From an uncultured Acidobacteriota bacterium (GTDB lineage: Bacteria; Acidobacteriota; Vicinamibacteria; Vicinamibacterales; UBA2999), in the NCBI GenBank assembly GCA_963723495.1, contig CAVRQR010000009.1:712627-776626 (forward strand): 64,000 nucleotides of DNA, in the 5' to 3' direction. Below are positions 1,654 through 45,670 of this stretch, in pieces. Every line of letters begins with the position of its first letter. Position 1 is the stretch's first letter. The notes beneath the pieces were generated by a model. It was given only the letters and a program-made list of their open reading frames with translations. It searched no databases and had not been told where the DNA came from. Position numbers and translations under genes: made by a program.

Positions 1654-2289
1654 TTACCCCCTGATCAGAAGGCCGCGCTCTGCTGCGAACACGGCAAGCG
1701 CGGTCGCCTTGCGCACGCCGATTTTCTTCATCATCTTGTTACGGTGCACCGCCACCGTGTTCATGCTGAGGTTGAGCTCGCGGGCGATCTCGCGATTCGA
1801 CTTGCTCTGAGCGACGCGCAGCAGCACTTCCTTCTCGCGGGCGGTCAGCCGCTCGTAGCCGGTCTCCCAGCCAGATTCTCTTATTTGAGTCGCACTCGAC
1901 AGGCCTGGACTCAGATAGCGGTCGCCGCGATGGGCGAGGTGGACGGCTCGCCTCAAGTCCATGTCCGACGCGTCATCGAGCTCGACGCACCCGAGTGCAC
2001 CTGCAGTCAATATGGCGTCAGCAACCCGCGGGGTAGACCAGTGGGCCACACAGACGATTCTGACGTCTGCCGCCATTCGAAGCGTCGCGATCTCCGAGAC
2101 CCGTGTCGCGTCCCGATCGGTCGTCGCGCACATCACGACGACGTCCACATCCTGACAAGACAGCATCGCTGCCGCGTCACCCGCGTTCGAAGCCTCCGCG
2201 ACGACGGCGATGTCCGTCTCCTCCTGGAGTAGACGTCGGAACGCACTCCGCAGCAGAGCGGAGCGCTCGACCAGCAGCACGCGGAGCAT
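1654..2289 (-). CDS. LuxR/NarL-family response regulator with atypical (pseudo-)receiver domain
   Basis: ATG at 2289 inside ORF 1654..2580, with aggagg just upstream. C-terminal LuxR HTH: LTAREKEVLLRVAQSKSNREIARELNLSMNTVAVHRNKMMKKIG. N-terminal receiver-like fold: MLRVLLVERS..VDVVVMC. The start overlaps the stop of the upstream GntR gene. Confidence 0.8.
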   Translation of the reverse strand: MLRVLLVERSALLRSAFRRLLQEETDIAVVAEASNAGDAAAMLSCQDVDVVVMCATTDRDATRVSEIATLRMAADVRIVCVAHWSTPRVADAILTAGALGCVELDDASDMDLRRAVHLAHRGDRYLSPGLSSATQIRESGWETGYERLTAREKEVLLRVAQSKSNREIARELNLSMNTVAVHRNKMMKKIGVRKATALAVFAAERGLLIRG

Positions 2290-3014
2290 CAGGCCTCCTG
2301 ACGACTGCTGGAGTCTGTCGACGTTCTTCGCCGGCGGGCACGGAAGGAGCGTGACCGGGCGGGCGTGTTCGGGAACAGCGCAAGAGCCGCCATGGCTCGG
2401 GCACTGCCGGCCGAGAGATGGAGTGCCACAGCCTCTGCCGCCTTGATGGGGTCTCTGGACACGATGGCCCGCACCAGTTCCTGATGGGTGGCGTGATCGC
2501 CGGAGGGCCGCGCGATCTGTGAGAGCCAGAGCGCGGCAAACGCATGGCACTGATCGACGGCGTCGCAAAGCGGCCCGCATCGGCTGTACGCGGCGATCTG
2601 GCGATGGAACTTCCGATGCAGCGCCGAGTACTGCTTGACGTCCAGTCGGGCGCCGCGTTCATCCAGTTCCTGCGCGAGCGTCTCGAGGTGCTGCAGTTCC
2701 TGCGCGCTGGCCATGATCGCGGTTCGCACGGCGGCCTGCGTCTCGAGCGCTTCCCGGACCACGAAGTGGCCGGTCACATCTTCAGGTGAGGGTGTCCGCA
2801 CGCGCGTGCCGGCGCGCGGCCGGCTTTCGAGCAGGCCTTCGAACTCGAGGCGCTGGAGTGCCTGCGCCGCGGGCAGCAGGCTCGTGCTCATTTCCAATGC
2901 GATGCGACGGCGAGACATCGGCTGCCCGGGTTGCAGCACGCCGCTCAGGATCTGACGGCGCACGTTCTGATACACCCGCAATCCCAGGGTGGCTGCTCGT
3001 TGCGAGTCACGCAT
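2289..3014 (-). CDS. GntR-family transcriptional regulator (FadR/FCD-type)
   Basis: Within ORF 2289..3236. wHTH: LRVYQNVRRQILSGVLQPGQPMSRRRIALEMSTSLLPAAQALQRLEFEGLLESRPRAGTRV, followed by a helical FCD-like C-domain. Start placed at ATG 3014 (alternative 3104). Confidence 0.75.
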   Translation of the reverse strand: MRDSQRAATLGLRVYQNVRRQILSGVLQPGQPMSRRRIALEMSTSLLPAAQALQRLEFEGLLESRPRAGTRVRTPSPEDVTGHFVVREALETQAAVRTAIMASAQELQHLETLAQELDERGARLDVKQYSALHRKFHRQIAAYSRCGPLCDAVDQCHAFAALWLSQIARPSGDHATHQELVRAIVSRDPIKAAEAVALHLSAGSARAMAALALFPNTPARSRSFRARRRRTSTDSSSRQEA

Positions 3015-3069: not shown

Positions 3070-3082
3070 TTCGCAGTACGAA
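3070..3082. promoter_or_regulatory. palindromic box TTCGC-agt-ACGAA (one mismatch) in the GntR/tannase divergent region
   Basis: Read directly from the sequence. Member of the TTCGN-N3-GCGAA set. Confidence 0.35.
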
Positions 3083-3310
3083 ATTTGTTTCTCAATAAGA
3101 ACATCCCACGCTTTCGCCCGTCAAGCGATTCCGCGGACCCAGCAGTGGTAGGTTTCACGTCGTGTTGGACGGCGCCGGCCCGCCGATGGTTCACAACCCC
3201 AGCAGTTCGAGAGGCTGGTCCCGGCGCCGTGGGCATAAGATGATGCCGCCGCCGCGCTCAGACCGGTCGGGACGATCGCGGTGAGATGACGCTAAGCCGG
3301 AGACATCTGT

Positions 3311-4903
3311 ATGCGTGTGCTGGTTGTCGCCCTCATCACCCTTTGCGTGACCGCCTCTGCCGCGGACGCGCAGCCGTTCGCGAATGCGAAGAGTTCCCTG
3401 GCGGACTATACCGTCGCCCAGTCCACACCGCAGAAGGCGTGCGAGTCGCTGGCGACCTTCAAAGGCGAGGGAATTGACACGATTCAGGCGCAGGTCGTCC
3501 CGGCAAGCGCCGACGCCCCGCAGCACTGCCGTGTCAGTGGGGTCATCGCGCCCGAGATTGCCTTTGAGGTCAACCTGCCGGACCACTGGAATCAGCGGTT
3601 CTACATGATCGGCAATGGCGGGCATGCCGGTGAAGCGCTCGACGCTGCGGGACGTGTATCGCAGCGGTCCGAGGCGCTCGCCAACGGCTTCGTGATGGCG
3701 CAGACGAATACCGGGCACGACTCGCGAAAAGAGCCCGGTGCCTCGTTCGTGATGAGCAACCCGCAGAAGGCCGTCGACTACGCCTACCGCGCGGTCCATC
3801 TCACGGCCGACACGGCCAAACGAATCGCCACCGACTACTACGCGAAGCCGGTGTCCTATTCGTACTGGAACTCGTGCTCGAACGGCGGACGCCAGGGTCT
3901 CATCGAGGCACAGCGCTATCCCGACGATTTCGATGGGATCGTGGCCAACGCGCCATGGGTCGACCAGACCGGGTTCACGATTGGCGCGATGTGGAATCAG
4001 CGCGCCCTGACGGAGGCACCGGTGCCGCCGGACAAGCTGCGGCTCGTGTCCGACCAAGTGATCGCGAAGTGCGATGCGGTCGACGGACTGACAGACGGCC
4101 TCATCGACGATCCGCGTGCCTGTCGTTTCGATCCCGCTGCACGACGTCCCGGCGTGCAAGGAAGGGGCGGATGCCGCCGATTGCCTCACCCCAGCCCAGG
4201 CTGGAACGCTCAAGAAGATCTATGACGGGGTCTCGAGCAACGGGCAGAAGTTCTTCCCGGGCTTCATGATTGGCAGCGAAGTGGTCTCCTCTGCCCCGAA
4301 TGGGACGCTGTCGAGCGGCTGGGCCAATCTGATCGTCGCCACGAAGCCGGGTGCCAAGCCCGCCGATTTCAACCTGGCCGAGGGGACGATGCGCTATCTG
4401 GTGTTCGATCCGCCACGGCCGGAATACGACTACATGACGTTCGACTTCGATCGCGATCCCGCGTTGCTCGAGCGCTGGGGCAAGCTGGCGAACGCGAACA
4501 ATCCGGATCTCTCCGCGTTCCGCGAGAGCGGGGGCAAGCTGATCATGACCTACGGCTGGGCGGACGCGATCCTTCAACCCATGATGGGCGTCGATTACTA
4601 CGAGAAGGTCGTCGCGACGCATGGGTCCAGCACCGGTGACTTCGCGCGACTGTTCATGATGCCGGGTGTGGCTCACTGTGGCGGCGGCGTCGGGCCCGAT
4701 CGTCACGATGCGGTCACGGCGGTCATCGACTGGGTCGAGAAGGGAAAGGCGCCGGACTCATTGCTCGCCTCGAAGGTGACGGACGGAAAAGTCGTCCGCA
4801 CGCGTCCGTTGTGCCCGTACCCGCAGGTCGCGCGCTACAAGGGGCAGGGCAGCATCGACGACGCCGCGAACTTCAGTTGCGTCGCGCCGCAAGAGTGCCA
4901 TGA
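3311..4903 (+). pseudogene. tannase / feruloyl esterase family protein, secreted, frameshifted, 3' end uncertain
   Basis: ORF 3311..4225 (signal peptide, NQRFYMIGNGGHAG, SYWNSCSNGGRQGL) continues in ORF 4116..5150 (CLTPAQAGTLKKIYDG, FMMPGVAHCGGG, RPLCPYPQVARYKGQGSIDDAANFSC). The shift is near 4136. Frame 0 has no stop until 5150. The end at TGA 4901-4903 (ATGA with the next gene) is a guess. Confidence 0.7.
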
Positions 4904-6096
4904 AGAGGTGGTGGTCGTTCGTCCTCGTGGGAGCGTGCACCCTGGCATGGGCGTCCTCGTCCACCGTTGGCGCCCGACAGTCTCGCACTCAGATACTCGA
5001 CGAGAACGGCGCGCCGGTCTTCAAAGTGGATCCGTTCTGGCCGAAGCCGCTGCCCAACCGATGGAGCATGCAGCAGGTCACCGGCATTCACGTGGACCAC
5101 GACGATCACATCTGGTTCCTGAATCGCGCCGCCGCGGCCGAAGGCGATGAGGTCGGAGGAGATGGCACGCCGCCCCGGATCGATTGCTGCGTGCGCGGGC
5201 CCGAGGTCATGGAGCTCGATCAGGATGGCAAGGTAGTCCACGCATGGGGCGGCCCTGGCTACCACCCGCTCTGGCCGACCGCACTCCAGACCGTGATCGC
5301 CGATCGTCAGGGATTCGTGTGGGTAGGGGGCACGGCGCCGCAGGACAGCATCCTCAAGTTCACGCGAGACGGCAAATTCGTCTGGGACTTCGGCCATCGT
5401 CCGCCGCCGGGTGCGCAGCTGGCCGAGAACAACGAGCAGACCGATGTCCTCGTCTCGAAAGGCCGCTTTCAGCTCGACGAGGTCGCGCGCGAGATCTACA
5501 TCATCAACTGGAAGCGCGTGCTCGTGTACGACATGGACACCGGCGCCTTCAAGCGCGGCTGGGGCGGCCACGGCATGCCGTTGAGCGAGATCTCGAACGA
5601 TCCGATTCCGCCGTACAAGTGGACCGGGGCTCCGCCTCCGGCGGAGAAGAACTTCGTGCCTGACCTTCACTTCCTCGAGATTTCCCGCGACAGGCGCGTC
5701 TACATCGGCGAACGCGGGCAGAACCGAATCCAGGTGTTCACCACCGACGGTAAGTGGCTGCAGGACTTCCATGTGGCGCCCAACACACCCGCGCGCGGCG
5801 AGGGGTGCGGCGGCCTCAACAACACGAAGCTGCCTCCCTGCGGAACGACCTACAAGCTGGCGATCTCGCGCGACCAGTCGGAGAAGTACCTCTACGTCGC
5901 TGATGGCACCAACAACCGCGTGTGGATCCTCGATCGCCAGAGCGGCAAGACGCTCGGTTCATTTGGCGGCAATGGCCGTTACGCCGGCCAGTTGCACTGG
6001 ATCAACGCGATCGCGATGGACTCGAAGGGCAACATCTACACCGGCGAAGTCGAACACGCGAAGCGGATCCAGAAGTTCGAGCCGGTGATGAAGTAG
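4900..6096 (+). CDS. NHL-repeat six-bladed beta-propeller protein, secreted (PAL-like fold); paralogue of 48254..49459
   Basis: Intact 398-aa ORF with a signal peptide. FKVDPFWPKPLPNRW matches FEVDPFWPKPLPNHW in the paralogue. NHL-like blades: YVADGTNNRVWILD and GNIYTGEVEHAKRIQKF. Confidence 0.65.
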   Translation: MKRWWSFVLVGACTLAWASSSTVGARQSRTQILDENGAPVFKVDPFWPKPLPNRWSMQQVTGIHVDHDDHIWFLNRAAAAEGDEVGGDGTPPRIDCCVRGPEVMELDQDGKVVHAWGGPGYHPLWPTALQTVIADRQGFVWVGGTAPQDSILKFTRDGKFVWDFGHRPPPGAQLAENNEQTDVLVSKGRFQLDEVAREIYIINWKRVLVYDMDTGAFKRGWGGHGMPLSEISNDPIPPYKWTGAPPPAEKNFVPDLHFLEISRDRRVYIGERGQNRIQVFTTDGKWLQDFHVAPNTPARGEGCGGLNNTKLPPCGTTYKLAISRDQSEKYLYVADGTNNRVWILDRQSGKTLGSFGGNGRYAGQLHWINAIAMDSKGNIYTGEVEHAKRIQKFEPVMK

Positions 6097-8717: not shown

Positions 8718-8746
8718 TTGACAGGTATCCGTGACAAGCGTATACG
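8718..8746 (+). promoter_or_regulatory. candidate sigma70-type promoter of TBDR1
   Basis: TTGACA (8718-8723), 17-nt spacer ending AGCG, then TATACG (8741-8746). Confidence 0.5.
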
Positions 8747-8768
8747 TGTTCCGGCCTGAGAACACACT

Positions 8769-8781
8769 TTCGGTATGCGAA
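8769..8781. promoter_or_regulatory. palindromic box TTCGG-tat-GCGAA, 22 nt downstream of the TBDR1 -10
   Basis: Read directly. It is embedded in a longer palindrome, ACACACTTTCGG..GCGAAAAGTGTGT (8763-8789). Confidence 0.5.
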
Positions 8782-8876
8782 AAGTGTGTATCGGGATTCG
8801 TGCGCGTGGATCGGTCTTGATATCGACCGGACGCGGGCAGGTGACCAAGTCCGGACGGCATTAGATGGAGGCAGGC

Positions 8877-11800
8877 ATGCGAGGTTTGGTGAGAACCCTG
8901 GCTGTTCTCTCCGCAGTTCTCCTGGCGCCAGTTGTCGCGAGTGCGCAGCAGGCGTCGATATCAGGAGTCATCAAAGACGCATCCGGTGCAGTGTTGCCGG
9001 GTGTCTCAGTGGAAGCTACAAGCCCGGCCTTGACGGAAAAGGTCCGGTCGGTCGTCAGCGACGGTACAGGGCAGTATCGAATCGTCGAACTGCCTCCCGG
9101 CACATACGCCGTCACCTTCTCCCTTCCTGGATTCAACCTCGTCAAGCGCGAAGGCGTCGTGCTGACGGGAGCCCTGACCGCAAATATCGATGTCGAACTG
9201 CGCGTCGGCTCGCTCGAAGAAACCGTCACCGTGACGGGTGAGTCACCCATCGTCGACGTGCAGAGCGCGCGACGCCAGCAGATTATCGACGGAGACGTCC
9301 TTCAGACGATTCCGACCTCGCGTTCCTATAACAACGTCCTCCAGCTCGTGCCCGGCGTCGTCGCAGGCGACGGGCAGGTCCAGCTTCGCCCGACAATGTT
9401 GTTGTTCACGGCCCACGGGGGCAGCACCGAAGACGGTCGGCTGACTCTCGATGGCATCAACACTGGCGCGTCCCGCGGTGGCGCCGGCGTGTCTGGGTAC
9501 ATTCCCGACATGCAGAACGCCGCTGAGGTCACGTTCACGATTTCGGGCAATCTTGGCGAGGCCGAAACAGGCGGACCCCAGATGACGGTCGTGCCGAGGT
9601 CGGGCAGCAACACGTTCAATGGCTCCTTCTTCATCTCGGGACTGAACGACAGCATGCAGGGCGACAACTTCGACGCGCAGCAGCTGAGCGTGTTGGCGGT
9701 TCTCCTGCAAAGTCGCTTTTGCTCCGTGACTACCAGGTTTCCGTCGGTGGACCGGTCCTGCAGGACCGGATGTGGTTCTTCTTCAATCATCGGCGCATCG
9801 ATGCGGCCGATGCCCAGCCCGGCATCTTCGCAAACAAGAACGCTGGCGATCCCTCCAAGTGGACCTATGTGCCGGACTTCACTCAACAGGGCCGAATCGA
9901 TCAGAGCCGCAAGATCTACTCCCTGCGACTGACCACGCAGCTGACGCCCAAGAACAAGTTGATGCTGTTCTGGGACGAGCAGCCGCAGTGCAGCGGCGCC
10001 GCCTGGCCCGGCAGCTCCTCCGACGATGGCTGCATGTCGAACAAGGACGGCTGGATCTATGGCGGCAGCCAGATCAACGGCTTCTTCGGTCCCGGTCCGA
10101 ACTCGCCGGAAACCGGCGACTACGGCGACACCCATCAGAAGGTGCAGCAGGTGAAGTACACGGCGCCAGCCACCAACCGGTTGCTGCTCGAGGCGGGCTT
10201 CGGGACCTATATCTCGCAGTGGGGCTACATGGAGCGGCCGGGCAACCCGACCAAGGACCTTGTCCGCGTGCAGGAGCAGTCGGCCCAGATCTTCGACCGC
10301 AACGGAAACAAGGTCGCGACGGCGTGCGCGGACTGTCTGACCGTGGGCGGCAACCTGAAGTATCGCTCCTCGAACTGGCCGACAGGCTACATCTTCGCGC
10401 ACACCTGGAACGCGTCCGCGAGCTACGTCACCGGTGCCCACAACATGAAGTTCGGGTATCAGGGTGCGTTCCACCGTGACGATGACAACCTGTTCCCGAC
10501 GATCAGCAATGATCACCTGATGCAGTTGACCGTCAACAACGGTGTGCCGAACAACTTCACGATTCAGTCCGGCGCGTTCACAAGGAAGGTACGCACCGAG
10601 TACTACGCGTTCTTCGCACAGGAAACATGGACGAAGGATCGCCTGACGTTGCAGGGCGCGCTGCGATTCGATCGTGCGTGGAGCTCTTTCCCAGAGCAGG
10701 TCATCGGTCCGTCCGTCACGGATTACCGACAGCGATCGTGCTTCCACCGCAGGACGGCATTACCGGCTACAACGACATCAGCCCGCGCATTGGTGGCGCG
10801 TACGATGTGTTCGGTAACGGGAAGACATCGCTCAAGGCAAACGTCGGACGTTACCTGCATCCGGCCTCGAACCAGGGGCGCTACATCAACGCCAACCCTT
10901 CCGAGCTCGTCTCGACGATCACGGGACGTGCGTGGACCGACGCTAACGGCAACTACTGGCCCGACTGCAATATCCTCGACGGCCGACCGCAAAGCCCCGC
11001 GACAACGGGTTCGATCGACACGTGCGGCGTCTGGGCAGATCCGAATTTCGGGCGAGAACGTCCGAGTACCACGCTCGATGAGTCCATCCTCGGAGGCTGG
11101 GGAGCGCGGCCTTACGACTGGCAGTTCGGCGTCTCGGTACAGCAGGAAGTCATGCCTCGCGTCTCCGTCGAAGTCGGGTACTACCGTCGGTGGTGGCCCA
11201 TCTTCGGCGGGCACGACGTCACCGACAACGTACTGACCAGCGCATCCGACTACAGCCAGTTCAGTGTTGTAGCTCCATCCGACTCCAAGCTGCCAAATGG
11301 CGGCGGATACTCAGTCCCTGGTATCTACAACATCACGCCCGGAGCAGCGTTGCGCGGTGCTGAGAACGTTCAGTCAGCGGCGAACGACTTCGGCAATTAC
11401 AAACGATACTGGGATGGCTTCGACATCACGGCGCAGGCACGCTTCGCAACGGGCTGACGCTCCAGGGTGGAACGAGCAGTGGCCGACTCGTCGAGGACAT
11501 CTGCGACGTGCGCACGCAGGTTCCGGAGTTGTCGGCCGGTGCGGGGGGAGTTCTGGCGAGTCCGACCAATCCGTAGTGTCGGCAGTCCGAACCGCTGCTC
11601 ACAACCTTCAAGGGGCTGTTCAGCTATCTGATCCCGAAGGTGGATGTGCAGGTTGCGGGTACCTTCTCGAGCCGTCCCGGTGTCAGCCTGACGGCGAATC
11701 AGGTCTACACCAGCGCGCAGATCGCTAACCCGGCGTTCTCGACGCTCGGGCGTCCACTGGCACAGGTGGCGACCGTCACCGTCAATCTGGTCGAGCCGCA

Positions 11801-12017
11801 AACCGAGTTCGGCGACAGAATCGATCAGCTCGACCTCCGCTTCGGCAAGATCCTCCGATTCGGCCGGACGAGAACCAACCTCAACGTGGACATCGTCAAC
11901 GCGCTGAACTCGAACGACAATCTCGGGTACAGCACGACGTTCAGCCCGACGTGGCCAACACCGACGAGCGTGCTCACTGCCAGGCTCTTCCGTCTGAGCG
12001 CGCAGTTCGACTTCTAA
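8877..12017 (+). pseudogene. TonB-dependent receptor with N-terminal carboxypeptidase-regulatory-like domain (TBDR1); 3 frame changes plus one in-frame TAG
   Basis: The gene is pieced from ORFs 8865..9932, 9719..11236, 10627..11457 and 11640..12017. N-terminus: ISGVIKDASGAVLPGVSVEATSPALTEKVRSVVSDGTGQYRIVELPPGTYAVTFSLPGF. C-terminus: LRFGRTRTNLNVDIVNALN..ARLFRLSAQFDF. TAG at 11574-11576. The likely start is ATG 8877 (GGAGG-N6-ATG). Confidence 0.85.
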
Positions 12018-15377: not shown

Positions 15378-16271
15378 CTATCGTCTGGCCGGTCGTGGCG
15401 TCGCCGGTCGCTCGACCTTCTGTGCCGGCTGACCCACGCGCGCGACCCCGCGCGACCGCCCGTAGTCGGACGCGACCGACTCGACCGAGTTGGTCAGCTC
15501 CGGGTGCTGTGTGAGCATGCCCTCGATACGACGCACCGCCTGTCGAAGTACGGGCAGCCGCTTCTTGATCATCGTGTCGCGGTCCAGCCGATTGGTGACG
15601 TCGGAGCAGTTCGCAGCCGCGACGATCCGGCCATGCGGACCGAAGATCGGCAGCGCCACGGACACGATGCCGTAGTCGAGCTCATCCTGGATCGCTGCGT
15701 ACCCCTTGGTGCGCACATCTTTGAGAATGCGGCGCAGCGCAGCGGGATTGGTCTCCGTCTGCTCGGTCAATCGTCGCAACGTTGCGCGCTCGAAGTACGC
15801 GTCGACGGCCGATTCCGGCTGGAACGCCAGCAGGACCCGACCCATCGAGGTCGGATACGCCGGATACCGCGAGCCTGCTCCCGCCGTCAGGCGGATCGCG
15901 CGATTCAGCGAGGCGTGCGCGATATAAACAATGTCGATTTCGTCGAGGACCGTCACTGACGAGCTGCCGCCGACCTCGTTGACCACTTCCTGAAGGAAGG
16001 GCTGCAGAACGACCTCGGCGTTGATGGCGCTCAGATATCCAGTACCGATGGCCAGCACCTTGGGCCGCAGGAGAAACCGCCGACCGGTTCTGCCGACATA
16101 TCCAAGCTCTTCGAGCGTATGAAGCGATCGCCGTGCGGTCGCCGGCGTCAAACCGGTCAGCGCCGCCACTTCGCTCAGCGTGAGCTGGGGATACTCGCCG
16201 GAGAACGTCTGAAGCACCCTCAGCCCGCGCTCCAGGGACGCGACGAATTCAGCCTTTGAGTTTTTCGCCAT
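15378..16271 (-). CDS. IclR-family transcriptional regulator (PcaR/PobR-like)
   Basis: Intact 297-aa ORF. N-terminal wHTH: VASLERGLRVLQTFSGEYPQLTLSEVAALTGLTPATARRSLHTLEELGYV. The IclR effector domain follows (GSRYPAYPTSMGRVLLAF..). It is divergent from TBDR2. Confidence 0.85.
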   Translation of the reverse strand: MAKNSKAEFVASLERGLRVLQTFSGEYPQLTLSEVAALTGLTPATARRSLHTLEELGYVGRTGRRFLLRPKVLAIGTGYLSAINAEVVLQPFLQEVVNEVGGSSSVTVLDEIDIVYIAHASLNRAIRLTAGAGSRYPAYPTSMGRVLLAFQPESAVDAYFERATLRRLTEQTETNPAALRRILKDVRTKGYAAIQDELDYGIVSVALPIFGPHGRIVAAANCSDVTNRLDRDTMIKKRLPVLRQAVRRIEGMLTQHPELTNSVESVASDYGRSRGVARVGQPAQKVERPATPRPARR

Positions 16272-16276
16272 GCGAA
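16264..16276. promoter_or_regulatory. palindromic box TTCGC-cat-GCGAA centred on the IclR start codon
   Basis: The central cat (16269-16271) is the ATG of the minus-strand IclR gene. A TATAAT (minus strand, 16290-16285) lies 13 nt upstream. Confidence 0.5.
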
Positions 16277-16343
16277 GAGTCCAGATTATAGCCTGCTCTC
16301 AGGCCTAAATCCCTGCCTACCCTGCTTTTGGGGCTTGTAATCC

Positions 16344-16372
16344 TTGACACCGCGTGAGTCGAAGCGTATATC
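16344..16372 (+). promoter_or_regulatory. candidate sigma70-type promoter of TBDR2
   Basis: TTGACA (16344-16349), 17-nt spacer ending AGCG, then TATATC (16367-16372). Confidence 0.5.
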
Positions 16373-16395
16373 TTCCTCCGCTCCAGGAAAAGAGA

Positions 16396-16408
16396 TTCGT
16401 ATAGCGAA
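16396..16408. promoter_or_regulatory. palindromic box TTCGT-ata-GCGAA, 23 nt downstream of the TBDR2 -10
   Basis: Read directly. It is the second copy within the 176-bp IclR/TBDR2 divergent region. Confidence 0.5.
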
Positions 16409-16447
16409 AATCCACGAAGATTTCCTGAGCGTTCGCGGAGGACAAGC

Positions 16448-19400
16448 ATGCGAGAGCGAGCAATAGCCCTGCTCCTGACCCTGGGGGTCCTGGCACTTCC
16501 GTCGGTGACGTATGCGCAGGCGCTCGGCACTATCGCCGGGGCCGTGAGAGATGCATCCGGAGCCGTGCTGCCTGGCGTGACCGTCGAAGCGTCCAGCCCG
16601 GCGCTCATCGAAAAAGTTCGAACGGTGGTGACCGATGGAAGCGGTCAGTACCAGATCGTGAATCTCCCTCCCGGCACCGTACGCCGTCACGCTTCACGCT
16701 GCCCGGATTCAGTACCTTCAAGCGCGACGGCGTCGAGGTGTCGGTGAACTTCACGTCGACCATCAACGCCGAGATGCGCGTCGGCGCGGTCGAGGAAACC
16801 ATCACGGTCACCGGTGAGAGCCCGATCGTCGATATCCAGTCGGCCGCGCAAACCCGTTCGGTGACTCAGGACATCATCAAGCAGCTTCCCGGCGGCGGCT
16901 CGTGGATTCAGATGGCCGCGAGCGTGCCCGCCATCCGCGCCGAGCGTCACGGACGTCGGCGGCGTGCTCGGCGATCAGGTCGGCGCGCAGGTGCAGGCGC
17001 ACGGCAGCCTGAACGGCGACGGCGTGTCGCTCTTCGACGGTCTGCGCATCGGCAACATGTACATCAGCTCGAACCTGACGAACATGAGCCTGTCGCCGCT
17101 GCTGTTCGATCAGGTCGACGTGCAGCTCTCCGGACAGAGCGGCGAGACGGGCACCAACGGCGTCATCATGAATGCCATCCCGCGGTCGGGCGGCAACACG
17201 GTTCCAGGGGTCGGCGCTGGTCAGCGGCTCCGCGCCCGAGCCTGCAGGGCAGCAACATCACCGACAGGCTGGAGGCTCGTGGTGTGGCGGGCGCGTCCAC
17301 GACGCTCAAGAAGCTGTTCGACATCAACGGCGCCGTTGGCGGACCGATCAAGCAGGACAAGCTCTGGTTCTACTTCACCTCGCGCTATTTCACGAACGAG
17401 TTCTACCTGGCGGGCCTGTACTACGCGCAGGACCCGACGGCGATTCGCCGCGCCGAGGACCCAGGCAACCAGGCATTTGGCGGCACCTATACCTACGACA
17501 ACAACGGGCGCGTCACCTGGGGCATCAACGACAAGCAGAAGTTCACCGGTTGGTACGCGTATCAGTACAAGGTCGACCCGCACTGGACGATCGCCGCGGC
17601 AACCACTGCGCCTGAGGCGGTGCGCGTCACGACGTGGCACACGCAGCTGTCCACCTTCAAGTGGACGTACACGGCCACGAACCGTCTGCTCTTCGAGGCG
17701 GGCGTTGCACCGGGCGCGAGCCCCGACACGATCATCGCCGAGCCCGACCGCATCAATGGCATCTCCATTCAGGACCAGGGGAGTCCTGCGGGCAGCACGC
17801 TGGGCATCAGACCGCTGATCTATCGTGCGCCGCAGGGCTTCGACTTCGACGACCGGCTTCCGTCTCAGAGCTTCGCCGCGTCGTCGAGCTACGTCACCGG
17901 CAGCCACAGCGTGAAGGTCGGGTTCGACATGCAGCGCGGTTACTTCTGGCGCGGTGACAACAACGAGTCGACTGGCGGCATCTGGTACCGCACACGCGAA
18001 GTACGTGCCCGAACCTGGTCACGATTCAGGCGCCGAATGCAGGTTGGCAGAACAATCTCAACTACAACCTCGGCATCTACGCGCAGGACCGCTGGACGAT
18101 GAATCGCCTGACGGTGAGCGGCGGCATCAGGCTCGACATGCAGAACGAGTCTACGTCCGACTTCACGTCGCAGCCGCACCGCTGGTTGCCCACCCGCAAT
18201 GAGTTCTACCCCGCGGTCGAGAACGTCCCGAACTGGAAGGACATCAACCCGCGCGTCTCCGTGGCCTACGATCTGTTCGGCACTGGCAAGACGGCGATCA
18301 AGGCGAGCGCGAGCCGGGGCGTGGAGCAGGACTCGATCCGCTATGCGGCCGCCAACAATCCCGCCAACACGCTCGGTCACTCAGGTCAGCCGCGACGTGG
18401 AACGACACGAACAATCAACTTCACAGCCGCGACTGCGACCTCCTGCAATTCCCAGCCGAACGGTGAGTGTCTCGTGTGGCAGGATCTCGGCTTCGGCAGC
18501 TCCAGGGTGAGCACCTTCTACGATCCCCGCATGCTGGAAGGGTGGGGCGTGCGGGGGTATAACTGGGAGTTCTCGGCCGGCGTGCAGCACGAGATCATCC
18601 CGCGGCTCTCGGCGAGCGTCGGCGCTACTTCCGGCGCATCTACGGAAACTTCAACGTCCTGGACAACGAGGCGCTGAGCGCCTCAGACTTCACGCGAGTA
18701 CAGCGTCGTCGCGCCGACCGACGCGCGTCTGGAGCTCTGCGGGACAGACGAGTCGGCGGCATCTACGACCAGAACCGTGCCGTCGCGAACCGCAACGTCA
18801 TCAAGCCTGCATCCGATTTCGGCGACGTGAAATCGCACTGGAACGGAGTGGACTTCTCGATCGATACGCGGCTCCAGAACGGGGTGCTGCTGCAGGGTGG
18901 TATCAGCACCGGCAAGACACGTGAACGATTACTGCGACATCATCGACGAAGTGCCCGAGGTGCTTTCGTCGGCTGCCGCCCCGACAGGGGTTCTGCTGGT
19001 CGGAATTGGCGCACCGGCGGCGGCGTGGACGCCAGCGGGATTCTGTCACCAGGAGACGCCGTTCCTCACGCAGTACAAAGCGGTTGGCGCGTACACGCTG
19101 CCGTACGGCATGCGCATCAGCGGCACATTCCAGAGCGTGCCTGGTCCCGTCAGTCGCCGCCAACAACATCTACACGGCGGTGCCGCCCTCTCTCGGCCGG
19201 CCTTTCTTCGCCGGCCAGTCCACGGTGAACGTCGTCGAGCCGGGCACGTCGTATGGCGACCGGTTGAACCAGGTCGACTTGCGGTTCTCGAAGCTGTTCA
19301 ACCTGGGGCAGGGGCGGCTCGATCTGAACGTGGACCTCTACAACGCGTTCAACTCGGACGCGATCCTGACGCAGCAGAACGCCTACGGCGCGACATGGCA

Positions 19401-19462
19401 GAACGCCGCTGACGGTGATCCAGCCGCGATTCGTGAAGTTCTCCGCGCGTTGGGACTTCTGA
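16448..19462 (+). pseudogene. TonB-dependent receptor, CarboxypepD_reg type (TBDR2); about 10 frame changes
   Basis: Pieced from ORFs 16448..16747, 16738..18102, 16964..17818, 18099..18677, 18827..19228, 18897..19412 and 19006..19470. N-terminus: GTIAGAVRDASGAVLPGVTVEASSPALIEKVRTVVTDGSGQYQIVNLPPGT. The true C-terminus, TVIQPRFVKFSARWDF plus TGA at 19460-19462, is read in a frame other than that of the last listed ORF. Confidence 0.8.
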
Positions 19463-19575: not shown

Positions 19576-19604
19576 TTGACACCATATTTTGGGTAGCGTA
19601 AAAA
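19576..19604 (+). promoter_or_regulatory. candidate sigma70-type promoter of TBDR3
   Basis: TTGACA (19576-19581), 17-nt spacer ending AGCG, then TAAAAA (19599-19604). Confidence 0.45.
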
Positions 19605-19629
19605 GGTTAGTTCGATCTGAGAAATGCAC

Positions 19630-19642
19630 TTCGCATAGCGAA
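19630..19642. promoter_or_regulatory. perfect palindromic box TTCGC-ata-GCGAA, 25 nt downstream of the TBDR3 -10
   Basis: Read directly from the sequence. Confidence 0.5.
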
Positions 19643-19722
19643 ACTCGTGCCGTGGCTCGAGGTTAGGCGAGCCGTTATTAACACTTCACCAAGGGGACAG
19701 AGGCAGGATGAGAGGTAAGAGA

Positions 19723-22700
19723 ATGCGCGCAAGTGTACGAACGCTTCTTGTGCTGGTTTGTATGATCGCCGCCCCCGCGGCCGCGTGGGCGCAGGCCACG
19801 ATCGCTGGCGCGGTCCGGGACTCCTCCGGTGCCGTCCTGCCAGGCGTGACGGTTGAAGCCGCCAGCCCGGTGTTGATTGAAAAGGTTCGCACGGCGATTA
19901 CCGACGGCACGGGTCGCTATCGAATCGAGGATCTCCGGCCCGGCACCTACACCGTGACGTTCACGCTCCCCGGCTTCGTGACCGTGAAGCAGCGAAGGCC
20001 TCATCGTCAGCGGCACGGCCGTCACGACGGTGAACGGTGAACTGCGTGTCGGCGGTGTGGCGGAAACGATCACCGTGACCGGTGAGACCCCGATCGTCGA
20101 CGTCCAGAGCACCAGGCGTGAGATCACGCTCGACAACGAGACCATTCGAAATCTTCCGAGCACGCGCAGCTACAGCTACCTGCTCACCACCGTTCCCGGG
20201 CTGCAGACCAACAACAACAACGTCAACACCGGTCCGGTGTTCGCGATTTTCCCGATCCATGGCGGCCGCGGCGTCGAATCGCGCCTGACGGTGGACGGAC
20301 TCAACATCAGCAACCCGCCCGGCGGCAACCAGCCGTCGAACTACGTCGCCGACGTCGGCAACGCATCGGAAGTGACGATGACCACGTCAGGCGGCCTCGG
20401 CGAGTCGGAGACAGCCGGCCTGACGGTCAACATCGTGCCCAGGCAGGGTGGCAACACGATGTCGGGGATGGTGTTCTACTCCGGGTTCTCGAAGGGGATG
20501 CAGTCGAGCAACTACGATCCCGAGCTGGCAGCGCGCGGCGTGCTCCAGCCGAATCCCGTGTACCACGTCTACGACTTCAACACCGCAGTGGGTGGGCCGA
20601 TCGTCAGGGACAAGCTCTGGTACTACATGAGCGTCCGCTGGCAGGGGCAGCGGCAGAACACGCTGAACCTGTATGCCAACCAGAACGCCGGCAATCCGAA
20701 CGCATGGACCTGGGTGGGCGACTACGACACGCCGGCGTTCTCGGATCGCACGTGGGAGAACTACACCCCTCGCATCACGTGGCAGGCATCGCAGAAGAAC
20801 CGGTTCACGTTCGTGTGGGATGAGCAGCCGATCTGCCGCAAGTGCACCGGGACCACCTCGTTCAGCGGCTCGCCCTCACCGACGACCTCACCCGAGGCGG
20901 ACGGGCTTGGCGACTTCAACCCGCAGCGCGTCCAGCAGGCGAAGTGGACCTCGCCGATGACGAGCAAGCTGCTCCTCGAAGCGGGCCTCGGCACCAGCGC
21001 CTACCAGTGGGCCGGTAAGGAACGCGATCCCAACCCGACCCATGACCTCGTCCGAGTGGTGAACAACGGGCAGATTTTCGTGCCGGCTTCCGCGACGACG
21101 CCTGCCGTTGTCGGCAACATGACGTATCGCTCGCAGAACTGGTACGAGAACAGAACCGCCGGGGTGAACTGGACCGCGTCGGGCACGTACGTGACCGGTT
21201 CGCACAGCATGAAGTTCGGCTATCAGGGCTACTGGTGGAAGGACGACCGCCAGATGTTCGTCAACAGCCAGAGCCTGCAGTACACGTTCAACAGCGGCGT
21301 GCCAAACCTCATCGCTCAGTACCTCAACGGGTACAAGGTGAACGCGCGCGCGATGTCCACGTCGTTCTACGTGCAGGACCAGTGGACGCTCGGCCGCCTG
21401 ACGTTGCAGGGCGCGCTCCGATACGACAATCCGTGGAGCTGGTTCCCCGAAACGACGGTGCCGGGAAGCCGTTTCTTCGAGGGTGCCACCTTTTCGAAGG
21501 CTGACGGCGTGACCGGCTACCACGACATCACGCCGCGCATGGGTGCCGCCTACGATCTGTTCGGAAACGGCAAGACCTCGCTGAAGGTGAACCTCGGGAA
21601 GTACCTCCAGGGCGCCAGCGTGAGCAACCTCGCCTATGGCGCGAACCCGGCGTTGCGGATCCCCGGCGGCGACACGACGTTCGGCGGTACGTTCGCCCCG
21701 ATCGACGAACCGCAGCTGGACGGACAACGACCGCGACTTCGTTCCGGACTGCGACCTGAACAATCCGCTGGCGCAGGGTCCGGCAACCACCGGCAGCGTC
21801 GACAACTGCGGCCAGATCAGCAATCTCCAGTTCGGCACAACCCAGCTCGTGCCGACGACCAACTTCGATCCGGGGCTACTGTCTGGATGGGGCGTTCGTC
21901 CGTCCGACTGGTCGTTCGGCGTTTCAGTGCAGCAGGAGATCATCCCGCGCGCGTCCGTGGAGGTCGGCTACTACCGGCGCTCGTTCACTCAGTTTTTCAC
22001 CGGCGGCACGGTGACCGACAACCTTGCGATATCGCCGAACGACGTCGCCGCGTACACGATCACGGCGCCAAGCGATCCGCGTCTGCCCAATGGCGGAGGC
22101 TACACGGTTGGCCCGCTCTATAACGTCAACCCGAACGTGTTCGGTCAGTCGAATCTGCTGCTCAAGTCGACGAAGGATGTCGGCGACGACACGCGCGTGT
22201 TCAACGGTGTCGACGTCAACTTCAACGTGCGGCTGAGGAACAGCCTGACGTTCTCGGGTGGCACCAGCACCGGTAAAGTGGAAAACGACTGGTGCGAGAT
22301 CCGCGCGGCGGTTCCGGAGTTCGGGCAGTACCAGCTGAACCCGTACTGCCACACCGAGTCGCCGTTCCAGACGTCGTTCCGCGGGTTGGCGTCCTACACG
22401 ATCCCGCGCATCGACGTGCTGGTGAGCACGGTGTTCCAGGACAAGATCAACGTCGGCACCGACCAGATCATGTCGCTGCAGGCCAACTACGTGTTTACGC
22501 CAGCTGACCAGGCGGCAGCGGCCGCGCAGATCGGCCGTCCGCTGACTGTGGGTGGACTGCTCCAGGCCAACCTGATCGCGCCGGGTGAGGAATACGGTGA
22601 CCGCGTCCGTCAACTCGATATGTCGGTCAAGAAGATCATGCGCTTCGGTGGTCAGCGCGTGACGGTTGGACTGGACATGTTGAACCTGCTGAACAACAAC

Positions 22701-22811
22701 GTGACACTCGCGTTCAACCAGGCGTTCTCTCCGACCACGACTGGCTGGCTGACGCCGACGACCTACATGAATCCGCGCGTCTTCCGGCTGAACGGCGAAT
22801 TCACCTGGTAA
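19723..22811 (+). pseudogene. TonB-dependent receptor, CarboxypepD_reg type (TBDR3); 2 frame changes
   Basis: Pieced from ORFs 19708..20040, 20030..22123 and 21636..22811, with shifts near 19990 and near 21705. N-terminus: TIAGAVRDSSGAVLPGVTVEAASPVLIEKVRTAITDGTGRYRIEDLRPGTYTVTFTLPGF. C-terminus: PRVFRLNGEFTW. Confidence 0.85.
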
Positions 22812-24357: not shown

Positions 24358-25360
24358 GTGATACGTCGCAGTCTTGTCGTTGCCGCGGTAGTCGTTGGCG
24401 TCATTGGCCTGTCATACCGGCTCGAAACGCCGGTGGATGCCCAGGCGCAGTCGATCGTGGTCGGCGCCGCGCACGCCATGGGGACACCCGGATCTGCAGG
24501 GCACGTATTCCAACGACGACGAGACCGGCACGCCGATGGAGCGCCCGCGCGAGCTCGAGGGAAAGACGCTGACCGACATCACGCCGGAGGAACTGCAGAA
24601 GATCGTCAAGGAGCGCAACGAGCGCTTCGTCGAGGGCGTCAGCGGCGAGGAGTTCGCGGGCGGCCTCCGGCCACCGGCGCATCTGATTTTCGATACCTTC
24701 GATCGCAAGAACAAGCAGGCGTGGCTCGTCGTCGATCCGCCGGATGGACGCATTCCGCGACGCACCGACGTACAACCGCGCCGGCCGCGCGGCGGAATCA
24801 GCACGAACGCCAACCCGAAGGGTCCGTTCAACAGCTGGCTGGACATGGGGCTGTACGATCGCTGCATCACCCGCGGCATCCCGGCCTCGATGATGCCCGC
24901 CGGCTACGGCAGCCGCTACGACATCACACAGAGCCCGGATAGCGTGGTCATCCGCTACGAGATGATCCATGAAGCGCGGGTCATTCCGCTGGACGGTCGC
25001 AGCCGTGCGGCGCAGGGGACCCGCAAGTACCTGGGTGACGCTCGCGGCTGGTGGGAAGGCGATACGCTCGTCGTCGAGACGACGAACTTCCTGCCCGAGA
25101 CCGCACCGCAGGGCTCGACCGAGCATGTCCGCATGATCGAGCGCTTCACCGCGAAATCAGCTGAGATCGTCGAGTGGCGCGTGACCTTCGAGGACCCGAA
25201 CACCTGGACGCGTCCGTGGACGTTCTCCATGCCTCTCACGAAGGTCGATCGAACACAGCAGATGTTCGAGTACGCCTGTCATGAGGGCAATCTGGCCATG
25301 CGCAACATCCTCAGCGCGCAACGCGCGGAGGAACGGGCGGCCGCTGAGGCAGCGAAGTAA
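24358..25360 (+). pseudogene. secreted 'WEGDTL-motif' family protein (paralogue P2), one frameshift near the signal peptide
   Basis: GTG 24358 opens signal peptide VIRRSLVVAAVVVGVIGLS..AQAQ (frame 1). The body is ORF 24395..25360: TPWGHPDLQGTYSN, YDRCITRG, GDARGWWEGDTLVVETTNF, NTWTRPWT, FEYACHEGN. Confidence 0.6.
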
Positions 25361-25406
25361 GCAGGGTCCCCGACGCCACGCCTGCGCGTTGGGGCGGAAA
25401 GGTTCC

Positions 25407-26288
25407 ATGAAGATCACTCTTACGCGAGCCCTGGCGGCGTCGCTGCTGCTGTTGACCGGAAGCAGCTGGGCCGCGGCGCAAACCGATTTCTCGGGTGAAT
25501 GGACGGTCGTCCGCTCCATGGATAACACCGAGAATCCATGGGTGGGCGATTTCGTCGGCCTGCCGCTCAGCCCCGACGGACTGGTCCGCGCCGAGAGCTG
25601 GGATGCGTCGATCCTCAGCCTGCCCGAGTATCAGTGCCGACCGCACGGGTGGGCGTACATCTATCGCGGCCCGACGGCGCTGCGGATCACAAAGGAAGTC
25701 GATCCCTTCTCCCGTGAGGTCGTCGCCTACCAGCCGGAGTGGCACCAGTCGACCAACATGCCGGTGTACCTCGACGGCCGGCAGGCACCGCCTCCCGAGG
25801 CAAACCATACATGGGGAGGGTTCTCGACCGCGACGTGGGAAGGCGATGTACTCCGCATCAAGACGACGCACCTGAAGGAGGATTACATCCGCCGCAACGG
25901 CGCCATGGTCAGCGATCAGGCGACCGTGACGTCGTACTGGATCCGGCGCGGTGACATCCTGACCTGGATCAACATCATTCACGATCCGGTCTACCTGTCT
26001 GAGCCGCTGATTCGCAGTTCCGAGTACCGGCTTAATGTGAACTCACAGGTACCGGCACACCCGTGCACATCAGCCTTCGAAGGCCTCGAGAAGGGCAACG
26101 TACCCCACCATCTGCCGGGTGAGAACCCGTTCCTGAAGAACATCCGAGCGCGGTATGGCCTCGCGCCGAACCTGCCGACCGGGGGCGTGCAGACGATGTA
26201 CCCGGAGTACCAGAAGACGTTACAGCCGAGTGAGTGGACCGCCGGCGATCGCAGAGCAAACGCACCGGCGACGGAGGGCCGGCGATGA
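25407..26288 (+). CDS. secreted protein of unknown function, distant 'WEGDTL' relative (paralogue P3)
   Basis: ATG 25407 within ORF 25281..26288. Signal peptide MKITLTRALAASLLLLTGSSWAAAQ. Motifs: YQCRPHGW, VYLDGRQAPP, GGFSTATWEGDVLRIKTTHLKEDYIRRNG, HDPVYLSEPLIRSSEY. Confidence 0.55.
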   Translation: MKITLTRALAASLLLLTGSSWAAAQTDFSGEWTVVRSMDNTENPWVGDFVGLPLSPDGLVRAESWDASILSLPEYQCRPHGWAYIYRGPTALRITKEVDPFSREVVAYQPEWHQSTNMPVYLDGRQAPPPEANHTWGGFSTATWEGDVLRIKTTHLKEDYIRRNGAMVSDQATVTSYWIRRGDILTWINIIHDPVYLSEPLIRSSEYRLNVNSQVPAHPCTSAFEGLEKGNVPHHLPGENPFLKNIRARYGLAPNLPTGGVQTMYPEYQKTLQPSEWTAGDRRANAPATEGRR

Positions 26289-29483: not shown

Positions 29484-29507
29484 GCGAACGTTTTTTCGCA
29501 TAGCGGA
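29484..29507. promoter_or_regulatory. three-half-site box GCGAA-N6-TTCGC-ata-GCGGA upstream of MetE-like gene 29609
   Basis: Read directly. It lies 24 nt after a TAGAAT hexamer (29465-29470). Confidence 0.45.
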
Positions 29508-29584: not shown

Positions 29585-29608
29585 ATCAAGAGTGAGGATT
29601 GCTCCGTC

Positions 29609-30789
29609 ATGTTGAAAGCCACTGCGGGGAAGATGCTGCCGACGACGATTACGGGGTCGTTGCCGCGGCCAAGCTGGTATACCGAGAACCTGGGGACGCG
29701 GTCGTTCCTGGATGCGATGGTGACGTCGCGGTTCCGGGAGCAGTATGTCGACGCGCTGTCGGCGTATCTGCGGGAACAGGAGGTCGCGGGGCTGGACATC
29801 GTGACGGATGGGGACTGCCGGTTCGACCAGGACATCGGCGGGCAGAGCTGGACGAGTTATCCGCCGCACCACATGAGCGGGTTCGAGACGACGCATCCGA
29901 AGCTGGCGAAGGTGGGGGCGGGGGGATCGCGTTTCCGCGCGGGCACATCCTGCACGACTACCTCGAGGCGCGGGTGATGCCGACGCTGGTGGGGCCGGTG
30001 GGGCGCGGGGAAATGCAGTATGCGGAGCTGTTCAAGGCGGCGCAGCGGCTGACGCACACGCCGGTGAAGTTCGGGACGGTGACGCCGGAACTGGTGGCGT
30101 TCGCGGTGCAGGACGAGCACTACACGACGCTGCCGGACCGCATCATGGCGTCTCGCGATGCGTTCAACGAAGAGCTGCACGACCTGGCGGATGCCGGGTG
30201 TCAGGTCATCCAGATGGAGGAGCCCCAGATTCACCTGCTGGCGGCCCGCGGGTATGTGGACAAGGTCATCAACCCGGAGTTCATGCTGAAAGTATTCAAC
30301 AACACGGTCAAGGGCCTGCGCGCGAAGACGGAAGTCTGGTGCCACACGTGCTGGGGCAACCCCTCGCAGCAGCGGATGTTTGGCAGCGTGCAGAGCTACA
30401 AGCCGGCGCTGGAGCTGCTGAACCAGGTCGATGCGGATGTGATCACGTTCGAGATGAAGAGCTCGAACATGATGGACCTGCAGGAGATCGGGGCGGCGAT
30501 CACGGACATGAAGGTGTGCATCGGGGCGATTGACCATCACACGCTGCAGGTGGAGGCGCCGACGGAGGTCGCGGACCTGATTCGGCAGGCCCTGACGGTG
30601 ATCCCGGCCGAGCGGCTGGTCCTGAGCTCGGACTGCGGGATGGGACGCGAGGGGATGAGCCGGCGGCATGCCTTCTACAAGATGGTGTCGCTGGTGCAGG
30701 GGACGAACCTGGTGAAGAAAGAACTGGGGCTGCCGGTGACGGAGAGCCTCGGGGCGGATCCGAAGTTCTCGTTGATCCGCACGACATAG
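29609..30789 (+). pseudogene. cobalamin-independent methionine synthase (MetE C-terminal domain)-like methyltransferase, one frameshift
   Basis: ORF 29609..29977 (LPTTITGSLPRPSWY..AGLDIVTDGDCRFD) continues in ORF 29599..30789 (QMEEPQIH, WCHTCWGN, SSDCGMG). The shift is near 29920. Confidence 0.65.
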
Positions 30790-37742: not shown

Positions 37743-37763
37743 TCCTTCTCCTGTCAAAAAATC

Positions 37764-37839
37764 CGTCAACTCCCAATTTCCAACACCCAACTTCCAAACG
37801 TTCTCTTGGGAGTTGGGAGTTGGAGGTTGGGAATTGACG
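37764..37839. repeat. low-complexity hairpin element, GGGAGTTGG family
   Basis: cgtcaactcccaatttccaacacccaacttccaa - 8 nt - ttgggagttgggagttggaggttgggaattgacg, between the MetE-like and LigM-like genes. Confidence 0.75.
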
Positions 37840-37849
37840 CGCATTGGAA

Positions 37850-39019: not shown

Positions 39020-39043
39020 GCGAACTTTGGTTCGTATTGCGAA
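39020..39043. promoter_or_regulatory. three-half-site box GCGAA-N6-TTCGT-att-GCGAA abutting the start of MetE-like gene 37850..39019
   Basis: Read directly. GCGAACTTTGGTTCG is identical to 40049-40063. Confidence 0.45.
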
Positions 39044-39482: not shown

Positions 39483-39568
39483 CTTCGACCTCGCCGAAGC
39501 AGGGTACTTCGAAGGACCCGACTTGTCTGGCCGTTGCCGCCTGACTAGAGTTCGGCGCGGAGGTTCAG

Positions 39569-40048: not shown

Positions 40049-40072
40049 GCGAACTTTGGTTCGACCTGCGAA
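40049..40072. promoter_or_regulatory. three-half-site box GCGAA-N6-TTCGA-cct-GCGAA upstream of the DUF1592 gene
   Basis: Read directly. A TAAAAT hexamer follows at 40080-40085. Confidence 0.45.
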
Positions 40073-42556: not shown

Positions 42557-42565
42557 GAGCCCGCG

Positions 42566-43882: not shown

Positions 43883-43910
43883 GCCTCGCGCGACTCGAGA
43901 ATGAGGGCTG

Positions 43911-45621: not shown

Positions 45622-45670
45622 TGTCCGGCTCTCGTCTGCGTAGTGTCCGGCTGTAGCCGGACCTGATCCG

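Follow-up and report, generated by a model that had tools for sequence, protein, structure and literature searches.

The closest described relatives of the system considered here are regulators of the IclR family that act on aromatic catabolism. The operator of Corynebacterium glutamicum PcaR, as quoted in PMC8222616 from Brinkrolf et al. 2006, is GTTCGC-N3-GCGAAC, and the group-1 consensus for the family is GKTYCRYW3-4RYGRAMC (Suvorova and Gelfand 2021, PMC8222616). According to the same study, the sites of Pseudomonas putida PcaR and of Acinetobacter baylyi PcaU and PobR belong to a GTNCG-N5-6-CGNAC class; three-box sites also exist, the third box being required for PcaU binding, tandem sites 18–22 nt apart are ascribed to tetramers, and regulators of the family generally control their own gene. 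PcaR is a repressor in C. glutamicum and in Rhodococcus opacus (PMC9582017), and loss of PheR, an IclR-type repressor of Sphingobium sp. SHPJ-2, raises the expression of aromatic-catabolic genes and of several TonB-dependent receptor (TBDR) genes (PMC13273656). Here we describe a 13-bp palindrome, TTCGY-N3-GCGAA (the box), that recurs in a 64,000-nt stretch of contig CAVRQR010000009.1 from an uncultured bacterium of the Vicinamibacterales (Acidobacteriota); this whole stretch, with a G+C content of 63.7%, is called the window below. One copy of the box is centred on the start codon of an IclR-family regulator gene, and a PcaR-like regulator encoded there probably shuts off, as far as can be read from the DNA, its own gene, three TBDR genes and aromatic O-demethylase operons.

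The core TTCGC-N3-GCGAA is identical to that of C. glutamicum PcaR, and the best hidden Markov model match of the regulator falls in the same subfamily. The targets differ: those of C. glutamicum PcaR are pcaIJ and pcaFDO of the beta-ketoadipate pathway, whereas the candidate targets here are TBDR, MetE-like/DesA-like, GntR and DUF1592/DUF1552 genes, with no pca genes in the window, and the phylum is Acidobacteriota. With A. baylyi PcaU and PobR and P. putida PcaR the present system shares the motif class, the combination of a palindrome with an external half-site, and control of the regulator's own gene. However, those proteins act mainly as activators that depend on an effector, and they bind at the -35 element or further upstream, whereas the boxes here lie mostly downstream of the -10 element, and the centre between their half-sites is ATWAT instead of the N3 that separates TTCGC from GCGAA here. 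The tandem operators of Suvorova and Gelfand agree with ours in consensus, and our centre-to-centre spacing of 19 bp falls in their 18–22 nt class; the main text of that study (PMC8222616) contains neither "Acidobacteri" nor "TonB", and this regulon does not figure in it. PheR resembles the proposed regulator in being an IclR repressor that acts on aromatic-catabolic and TBDR genes, but its 44-bp G+C-rich footprint has a GCAACG core, and its control of receptors comes from transcriptomics, not from mapped operators, whereas in the present case a conserved operator stands before every one of the three receptor genes. What is new is therefore not the motif, the three-box and tandem architecture or the autoregulation, all established for the IclR family, but the host, a member of the Vicinamibacterales, and the regulon content, with an operator for each of three receptors.

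Copies and placement of the box

A first-pass annotation made from the letters of the window had listed eight copies of the box, beginning at 3070, 8769, 16264, 16396, 19630, 29495, 39031 and 40060. All eight are there, including the one mismatch (GCGGA) that had been stated for 29495, and the copy at 3070 fits the pattern when read on the minus strand. The repeated palindrome is real: TTCGNNNNGCGAA is matched 12 times in the window when both strands are counted, at 10 distinct sites, against 1.20 ± 1.15 (maximum 4) in 100 dinucleotide-preserving shuffles. The excess over chance thus held, but the accompanying estimate of 0.2 chance hits in 64 kb was too low; the shuffles give 1.2 and unrelated loci 2–3, i.e., 1–3.

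We scored the window with a position-weight matrix trained solely on sites from other genomes (44 sites, consensus tTTCGCATAGCGAAa). The sites ranked in the order 16396 > 19630 > 3070 > 8769 > 39031 > 29495 > 40060 > 16264, so that the eight listed copies are exactly the top set, at 13–37 bits (37 for 16396, 24.9 for 29495, 16.2 for 40060), the best of 20 shuffles reaching 13.2. Three exact matches that the list had overlooked, at 23132, 31709 and 34032, have G+C-rich centres and score at most 8.4 bits, which is background level. The one at 31709 lies wholly within a GSDH gene and that at 34032 wholly within an open reading frame (ORF, 33571–34563) without a Pfam match and with a low G+C content at third codon positions. 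In 478 kb of unrelated soil-metagenome loci the density of a looser palindrome, TTCG-N5-CGAA, is 4.6 per 100 kb, a figure to which a recurrent coding motif contributes; this corresponds to 2–3 per 64 kb and accounts for the three extra matches, which on their sequence are background. The 23132 match, which lies before the dioxygenase-like gene 23219, was weighed as a possible ninth site and rejected, given its low score, its G+C-rich centre and the lack of a box at the equivalent position before the orthologues in two related loci (L004 and L016).

Non-coding DNA makes up 9.7% of the window in our gene map. Seven of the eight sites fall entirely within such DNA, and the remaining one extends across the IclR start codon (binomial P = 6e-7), in keeping with the description of the copies as intergenic or on a start codon. 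A comparison of gene fronts with coding DNA, which the first-pass annotation had proposed as a check, therefore comes out in favour of gene fronts within the window.

The other check, conservation upstream of orthologous genes, gave a concordant result: the box is kept in 19 related genomes and in 3 metagenome contigs. The related genomes came from a scan with the IclR protein, one genome per species, which returned 19 loci (given L numbers here), all from metagenome-assembled genomes (MAGs) of Acidobacteriota/Vicinamibacterales, with 70–97% protein identity. In the window and the 19 loci together (368.5 kb) TTCG-N5-CGAA occurs 83 times, and its density in the related loci is 24 per 100 kb, vs the 4.6 per 100 kb of unrelated loci.

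The regulator gene and the receptor promoters

The regulator gene (15378–16271, minus strand) encodes a PcaR/PcaU/PobR-like protein of 297 residues, assigned by Pfam, NCBIfam and structure comparison. Its architecture is that expected for this subfamily, with HTH_IclR (PF09339) at residues 12–61 and IclR_C (PF01614) at residues 79–249. The top NCBIfam match is TIGR02431, pcaR_pcaU, with 264.4 bits; the runner-up, BhcR, has 125 bits and is thus 139 bits behind. The nearest solved structures are a Rhodococcus regulator (2ia2) and a Pca-regulon regulator (8eju), whose recognition-helix regions are similar to that of the protein (…TPATARRSLHTL…). Neither the window nor the related loci showed pca or pob genes beside boxes. 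Most gene labels of the first-pass annotation agree with Pfam and NCBIfam.

As had been read, the cat at 16269–16271 is the ATG of the minus-strand IclR ORF; no other start is possible between it and the upstream stop. The box centred on it, TTCGCCATGCGAA (16264–16276), is a putative autoregulatory site that is kept in all 19 orthologous loci, as the proposed autoregulatory placement would have it. A TATAAT -10 hexamer (16285–16290, minus strand) lies 8 nt upstream of the box in the window and is present in all 19 loci, 4–10 nt from the box; the preceding base varies, being usually c (gctataat) and in some loci a (gatataat). Given that TATAAT and ATG are only 13 nt apart in the window, the mRNA leader would be about 5–7 nt long, without a Shine-Dalgarno sequence.

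Conservation of the start-codon box, which takes the form TTCGC-[AG]TG-[GC]CGAA in the 19 loci, does not look like a coding artefact. The non-coding TTCGC is retained while the sequence between TATAAT and the box varies, and TTCG and CGAA are intact both in the two loci where ATG has become GTG and in the two where codon 2 has changed from GCG to CCG. Moreover, the box remains with the IclR gene where the divergent neighbour is no receptor (L006, L008, L010, L018 and L019).

In four loci (L003 at 370, L004 at 10012, L005 at 2279 and L016 at 10012) codons 4–8 of the IclR gene contain a further exact box, TTCGAARGCCGAA, which lies 16 bp downstream of the one on the start codon. Its counterpart in the window is degenerate (actcaaaggctgaa). 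The further copy may serve as an auxiliary site, or it may simply follow from the conserved N-terminal peptide.

Three TBDR genes on the plus strand, recognized by their similarity to an intact receptor at 56053–59256 and all frameshifted in the assembly, have a box in front of them: TBDR1 (8865–12017), TBDR2 (16449–19412) and TBDR3 (19708–22811). TBDR2 is divergent from the IclR gene, and the region between them (16272–16448, 177 bp) holds two copies of the box, as had been noted. The TBDR2 promoter, TTGACA-N17-TATATC (16344–16372, plus strand), was found by reading the sequence and by a regular-expression scan. It is followed by a weak distal box, TCCGCTCCAGGAA (TCCG-N5-RGAA, 16377–16389, plus strand), over the predicted transcription start and, 19 bp further on, by the proximal box TTCGTATAGCGAA (16396–16408, plus strand) in the leader, which has the top matrix score. 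In 16 loci this proximal box is conserved as a second box in the divergent TBDR2 leader, so that both the regulator's own promoter and the divergent operon carry one. The TBDR1 module (8718–8781, plus strand), found in 14 loci, consists of TTGACA (8718–8723), TATACG (8741–8746), a distal box (8750–8762) and a proximal box (8769–8781). The TBDR3 module (19576–19642, plus strand) likewise comprises TTGACA (19576–19581), TAAAAA (19599–19604), the distal box TTCGATCTGAGAA (19611–19623) and a proximal box (19630–19642).

When sites were aligned in the direction of the downstream gene, the 40 TBDR-type sites showed a common layout: cTTGACAg-N17 (ending in aGCG)-TATAC, 3–6 nt, TCCG-N5-RGAA, 6 nt, TTCGY-N3-GCGAA-a, gene. 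The regular-expression scan found TTGACN-N17/18-TANNNN at 37 of the 40; it was used in place of a stock promoter scan, which requires T at the last -10 position and gave none of these promoters. At these sites the proximal box begins 22–25 nt past the end of the -10 hexamer and the distal box exactly 19 bp before the proximal one, and the TCCG and GAA columns of the distal box are 80–90% conserved. Assuming a start about 7 nt past the -10 hexamer, the two boxes are predicted to span roughly -3 to +30. By synteny mapping, the box precedes every TBDR1-, TBDR2- and TBDR3-type gene of the related loci. The receptor paralogues share only about 30–45% protein identity yet have the same promoter-operator layout, which argues for selection and not for recent duplication.

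The 13-bp box that had been proposed as the site is thus present, but it appears to make up just the stronger half of an operator that has two boxes or three half-sites. The matrix consensus contains the palindromic core TYCRY-W3-4-RYGRA of group-1 operators, and their second feature, an extra half-site or a tandem palindrome 18–22 bp away, is found as well, in the distal box at 19 bp, in half-sites 6 bp away at other promoters, and in locus L073 (see below). A fixed-phase looping model for the IclR/TBDR2 region was dropped, as the distance from the IclR box to the TBDR2 box ranges from 106 to 440 bp among loci.

The receptor -10 hexamers are preceded by a conserved aGCG (aGCGTATAC; 8736–8746, 16362–16372 and 19594–19604, and at orthologous sites), which differs from the usual TGn extended -10. 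The fourth TBDR gene of the window, the intact one at 56053–59256, has no box and is preceded by a short GntR-type regulator gene (54909–55331). Several frameshifts are present in each of the three box-bearing receptor genes and in the tannase gene (3311–5150), and the long ORFs of the 40109–59256 region are all intact. Orthologous receptor genes are likewise fragmented in four "MFD" MAG loci (L004, L007, L012 and L016) and intact in the other MAG loci; this points to assembly errors in that set of MAGs, which may, going by their names, be long-read assemblies, rather than to pseudogenes. Nucleotide identity between TBDR1 and its L001 orthologue is only 78%, too low to place the frameshifts in homopolymers.

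GntR, O-demethylase and DUF1592/DUF1552 promoters

At 3070, 29495, 39031 and 40060 the palindrome is accompanied by a third half-site, G[C/A]GAA, 6 bp away, and 3070 has a full weak box at 3089 besides. The first of these operators (3070–3101, minus strand; proximal box 3070–3082, distal box TTCTCAATAAGAA at 3089–3101) belongs to the promoter of a GntR/FCD regulator gene (2289–3014, minus strand, probable start 3014; Pfam GntR and FCD). The ORF from 3311 onwards encodes a tannase/feruloyl esterase, and the first-pass annotation had drawn the tannase locus, together with the receptors, the MetE-like and demethylase genes and the DUF1592/DUF1552 pair, into a single IclR regulon. The GntR start is 56 nt downstream of the 3070 box, and the tannase start is about 230 nt away from it; the box directly precedes the GntR orthologues in L003, L004, L010 and L016, in genomes without an adjacent tannase too. 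Because the box is nearer to the GntR gene and travels with it, the tannase link is at best indirect, through GntR, and the GntR gene may represent a second tier of control over tannase and other genes. Of the proposed regulon, the TBDR, MetE-like/demethylase and DUF1592/DUF1552 genes therefore stay as predicted members, while the direct tannase link does not.

There are two MetE-like (Meth_synt_2) ORFs, 29599–30789 and 37850–39019. The operator before the former (29484–29507, plus strand) comprises a half-site GCGAA (29484–29488) and the one-mismatch box TTCGCATAGCGGA (29495–29507); orthologues of this gene have a box in L019 (7544) and in L004 (141, one mismatch). The second MetE-like gene forms a minus-strand operon with ORF 36483–37982, which matches the syringate O-demethylase DesA with 620 bits and the vanillate/3-O-methylgallate O-demethylase LigM with 517 bits. 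Within the operator of this operon (39020–39043, minus strand) the box (39031–39043) comes directly after a TAATAT -10 element, starting 3 nt past it, and the third half-site, TTCGC, abuts the ATG.

A metagenome scan with the second MetE-like protein gave 80 loci. Among 73 metagenome homologues, boxes are found upstream only in L020, L021 and L022, which are the closest (84–86% identity) and have the same layout of -10, box, 6 nt and TTCGC, and in L073. This restriction to close relatives and L073 implies that the association is lineage-specific and not a property of the gene family. Locus L073 belongs to a different lineage; there (3819–6007) a MetE-like gene (63% identity) and the gene of an IclR paralogue (48% identity) are transcribed away from each other, and between them lie two perfect boxes at a spacing of 19 bp (4780 and 4799) and one more at 4707.

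The DUF1592/DUF1552 operon (40109–43882) consists of a DUF1592-type ORF (40109–42556) and a DUF1552 ORF (42566–43882). Its operator (40049–40072, plus strand) has a half-site GCGAA at 40049–40053 and a box at 40060–40072 that overlaps the -35/spacer region of TTGGTT-N18-TAAAAT. L020 and L022 have this operon and the MetE-like/DesA-like operon directly side by side and divergent, with one box for both; the membership of the DUF1592/DUF1552 pair thus does not rest on the window alone. In the window the two operators (39020–39043 and 40049–40072) have gcgaactttggttcg…tgcgaaa in common and are separated by a roughly 1-kb pair of genes, for an HxlR-type regulator (39102–39482, minus strand) and a glyoxalase-fold protein (39569–39982, plus strand). 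The arrangement suggests duplication of the operator on either side of an insertion at 39102–39982.

A full promoter-plus-box module stands before the orthologue of the hypothetical gene 25281–26288 in L004 (4284) and in L016 (1016). When we searched the window for it at about 25330–25420, the operator was absent and the sequence there was unrelated, indicating that regulon membership turns over between close relatives. In L009 a box precedes a dioxygenase-like gene. Two paralogous genes for glucose/sorbosone dehydrogenases of the pyrroloquinoline quinone (PQQ) type (30938–32230 and 34700–35998) and a large gene for a PQQ alcohol-dehydrogenase-type propeller (51918–53969) have no box.

Probable repression and its alternatives

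The analysis establishes the sites, how enriched and conserved they are, where they lie with respect to conserved promoter hexamers, and to which family the protein belongs. We infer from sequence that the IclR protein is the binder, that it acts as a tetramer and by repression, and what kind of effector it answers to. On balance we consider it likely that the box is the operator of a PcaR-like IclR repressor, bound as a tetramer and released by an effector.

The mechanism would be as follows. TTCGY-N3-GCGAA would be the high-affinity half of the DNA operator of the IclR protein 15378–16271. At the receptor promoters a tetramer (a dimer of dimers) would sit on the two boxes 19 bp apart, about two helical turns, so that positions from roughly -3 to +30 of a sigma-70-type promoter (TTGACA-N17-TATAC) would be covered; at the other promoters it would use the palindrome and one extra half-site 6 bp away. 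The space from the conserved TTGACA-N17-TATAC promoter to the gene is filled by the pair of boxes, a placement characteristic of repressors. The effector-free protein would block initiation or clearance at bound promoters, i.e., at its own near-leaderless promoter and those of the three TBDR genes, the GntR regulator gene, the two MetE-like methyltransferase operons (one with the syringate/vanillate O-demethylase homologue) and the DUF1592/DUF1552 operon. The effector, whose binding would release the protein, is presumably a lignin- or tannin-derived aromatic acid.

Several points weigh against this interpretation. That the IclR protein is the binder is itself predicted, the genome may hold paralogous IclR proteins with the same consensus, and specificity was judged within 64 kb of the genome only. 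The protein scores just short of the curated TIGR02431 cutoff (284.75 bits); for this reason, and because no pca genes were seen, we name the protein PcaR-like and do not certify it as a PcaR. The transcription starts are predicted from hexamers. Finally, the 40060 box scores just 16 bits and sits on the -35/spacer, a position used by the activators P. putida PcaR, PcaU and PobR, and the sign of regulation could differ between promoters.

The last of these points leads to the strongest alternative, namely that the box is a genuine IclR-type operator used by an effector-dependent activator or dual regulator, in the manner of PcaU, PobR or P. putida PcaR. Activators and dual regulators do occur in the IclR family (PMC8222616), and two sites, 40060 and the plus-strand reading of 39031, have the box over part of a weak -35 element (TTGGTT) 18 nt before TAAAAT or TAATCC, an arrangement compatible with activation. 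We nevertheless regard activation as rather unlikely. The receptor sites, at 37 of 40, lie downstream of a near-consensus TTGACA-N17-TATAC, from the predicted start to about +30, and the boxes of the IclR gene and of the MetE-like/DesA-like operon start 3–8 nt past the -10 element; a strong promoter with a downstream site is typical of repression. In addition, C. glutamicum PcaR, with an identical motif, is called a repressor (PMC9582017).

It is somewhat less likely still that the operator is bound by another factor, either an IclR paralogue from elsewhere in the genome or the GntR/FCD regulator 2289–3014, whose gene is syntenic in several loci and itself box-bearing. Operators of the GntR/FadR type typically have a GT-N-AC core, and the box is without it, which speaks against GntR as the binder. 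IclR paralogues with the same consensus are common (PMC8222616), and only part of the genome was examined; but all 19 orthologues, whatever their neighbours, have the box on the IclR start codon, the motif fits the IclR group-1 consensus (PMC8222616), and L073 again pairs an IclR gene with boxes in a second lineage.

Since the receptor-gene box is downstream of the predicted transcription start and hence would be transcribed, the palindrome might instead work as a leader hairpin in the 5' untranslated RNA, serving as an attenuator or a processing or stability element. This is very improbable: sequence is conserved and pairing is not (positions 4/8 are Watson-Crick pairs in 11 of 42 distinct variants, positions 5/7 in 6 of 42), the stem would be only 4–5 bp with a loop of 3–5 nt, other copies of the box precede or straddle -35/-10 elements or fall on a start codon, either orientation is used, and an Rfam scan of the window gave no match. 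Chance or compositional origin of the eight sites, or their descent from a dispersed repeat element, is refuted, notwithstanding the three background-like sites among the ten exact matches and the empirical background, by the conservation at the IclR start and at orthologous positions in genomes with 70–97% IclR identity, by the matrix scores, by the placement and by flanks that are unrelated beyond about 32 bp.

Given a PcaR-like repressor, we would tentatively go one step further, to a proposal that we consider less likely than not: a single regulator couples three TBDRs to tetrahydrofolate-type O-demethylation of methoxylated lignin- or tannin-derived aromatics and controls the DUF1592/DUF1552 pair, which has no assigned function, as well. 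Literature searches on DUF1592/DUF1552 function and on aromatic uptake in the Vicinamibacterales gave nothing relevant. The regulon would bring no new regulatory principle, and its value would lie mainly in ecological and functional leads, although the compact promoter-operator module could be reused as an aromatic-responsive switch. The Vicinamibacterales are an abundant and almost uncultured soil order, and the predicted regulon is a concrete one for a major uncultured soil lineage. It names receptor genes that likely import aromatic substrates, and it would tie the MetE-like and DesA/LigM-like demethylation genes and the DUF1592/DUF1552 genes to one signal. If true, this would be the first functional lead for the widespread DUF1592/DUF1552 pair, suggesting a role in the uptake or oxidation of plant-derived aromatics.

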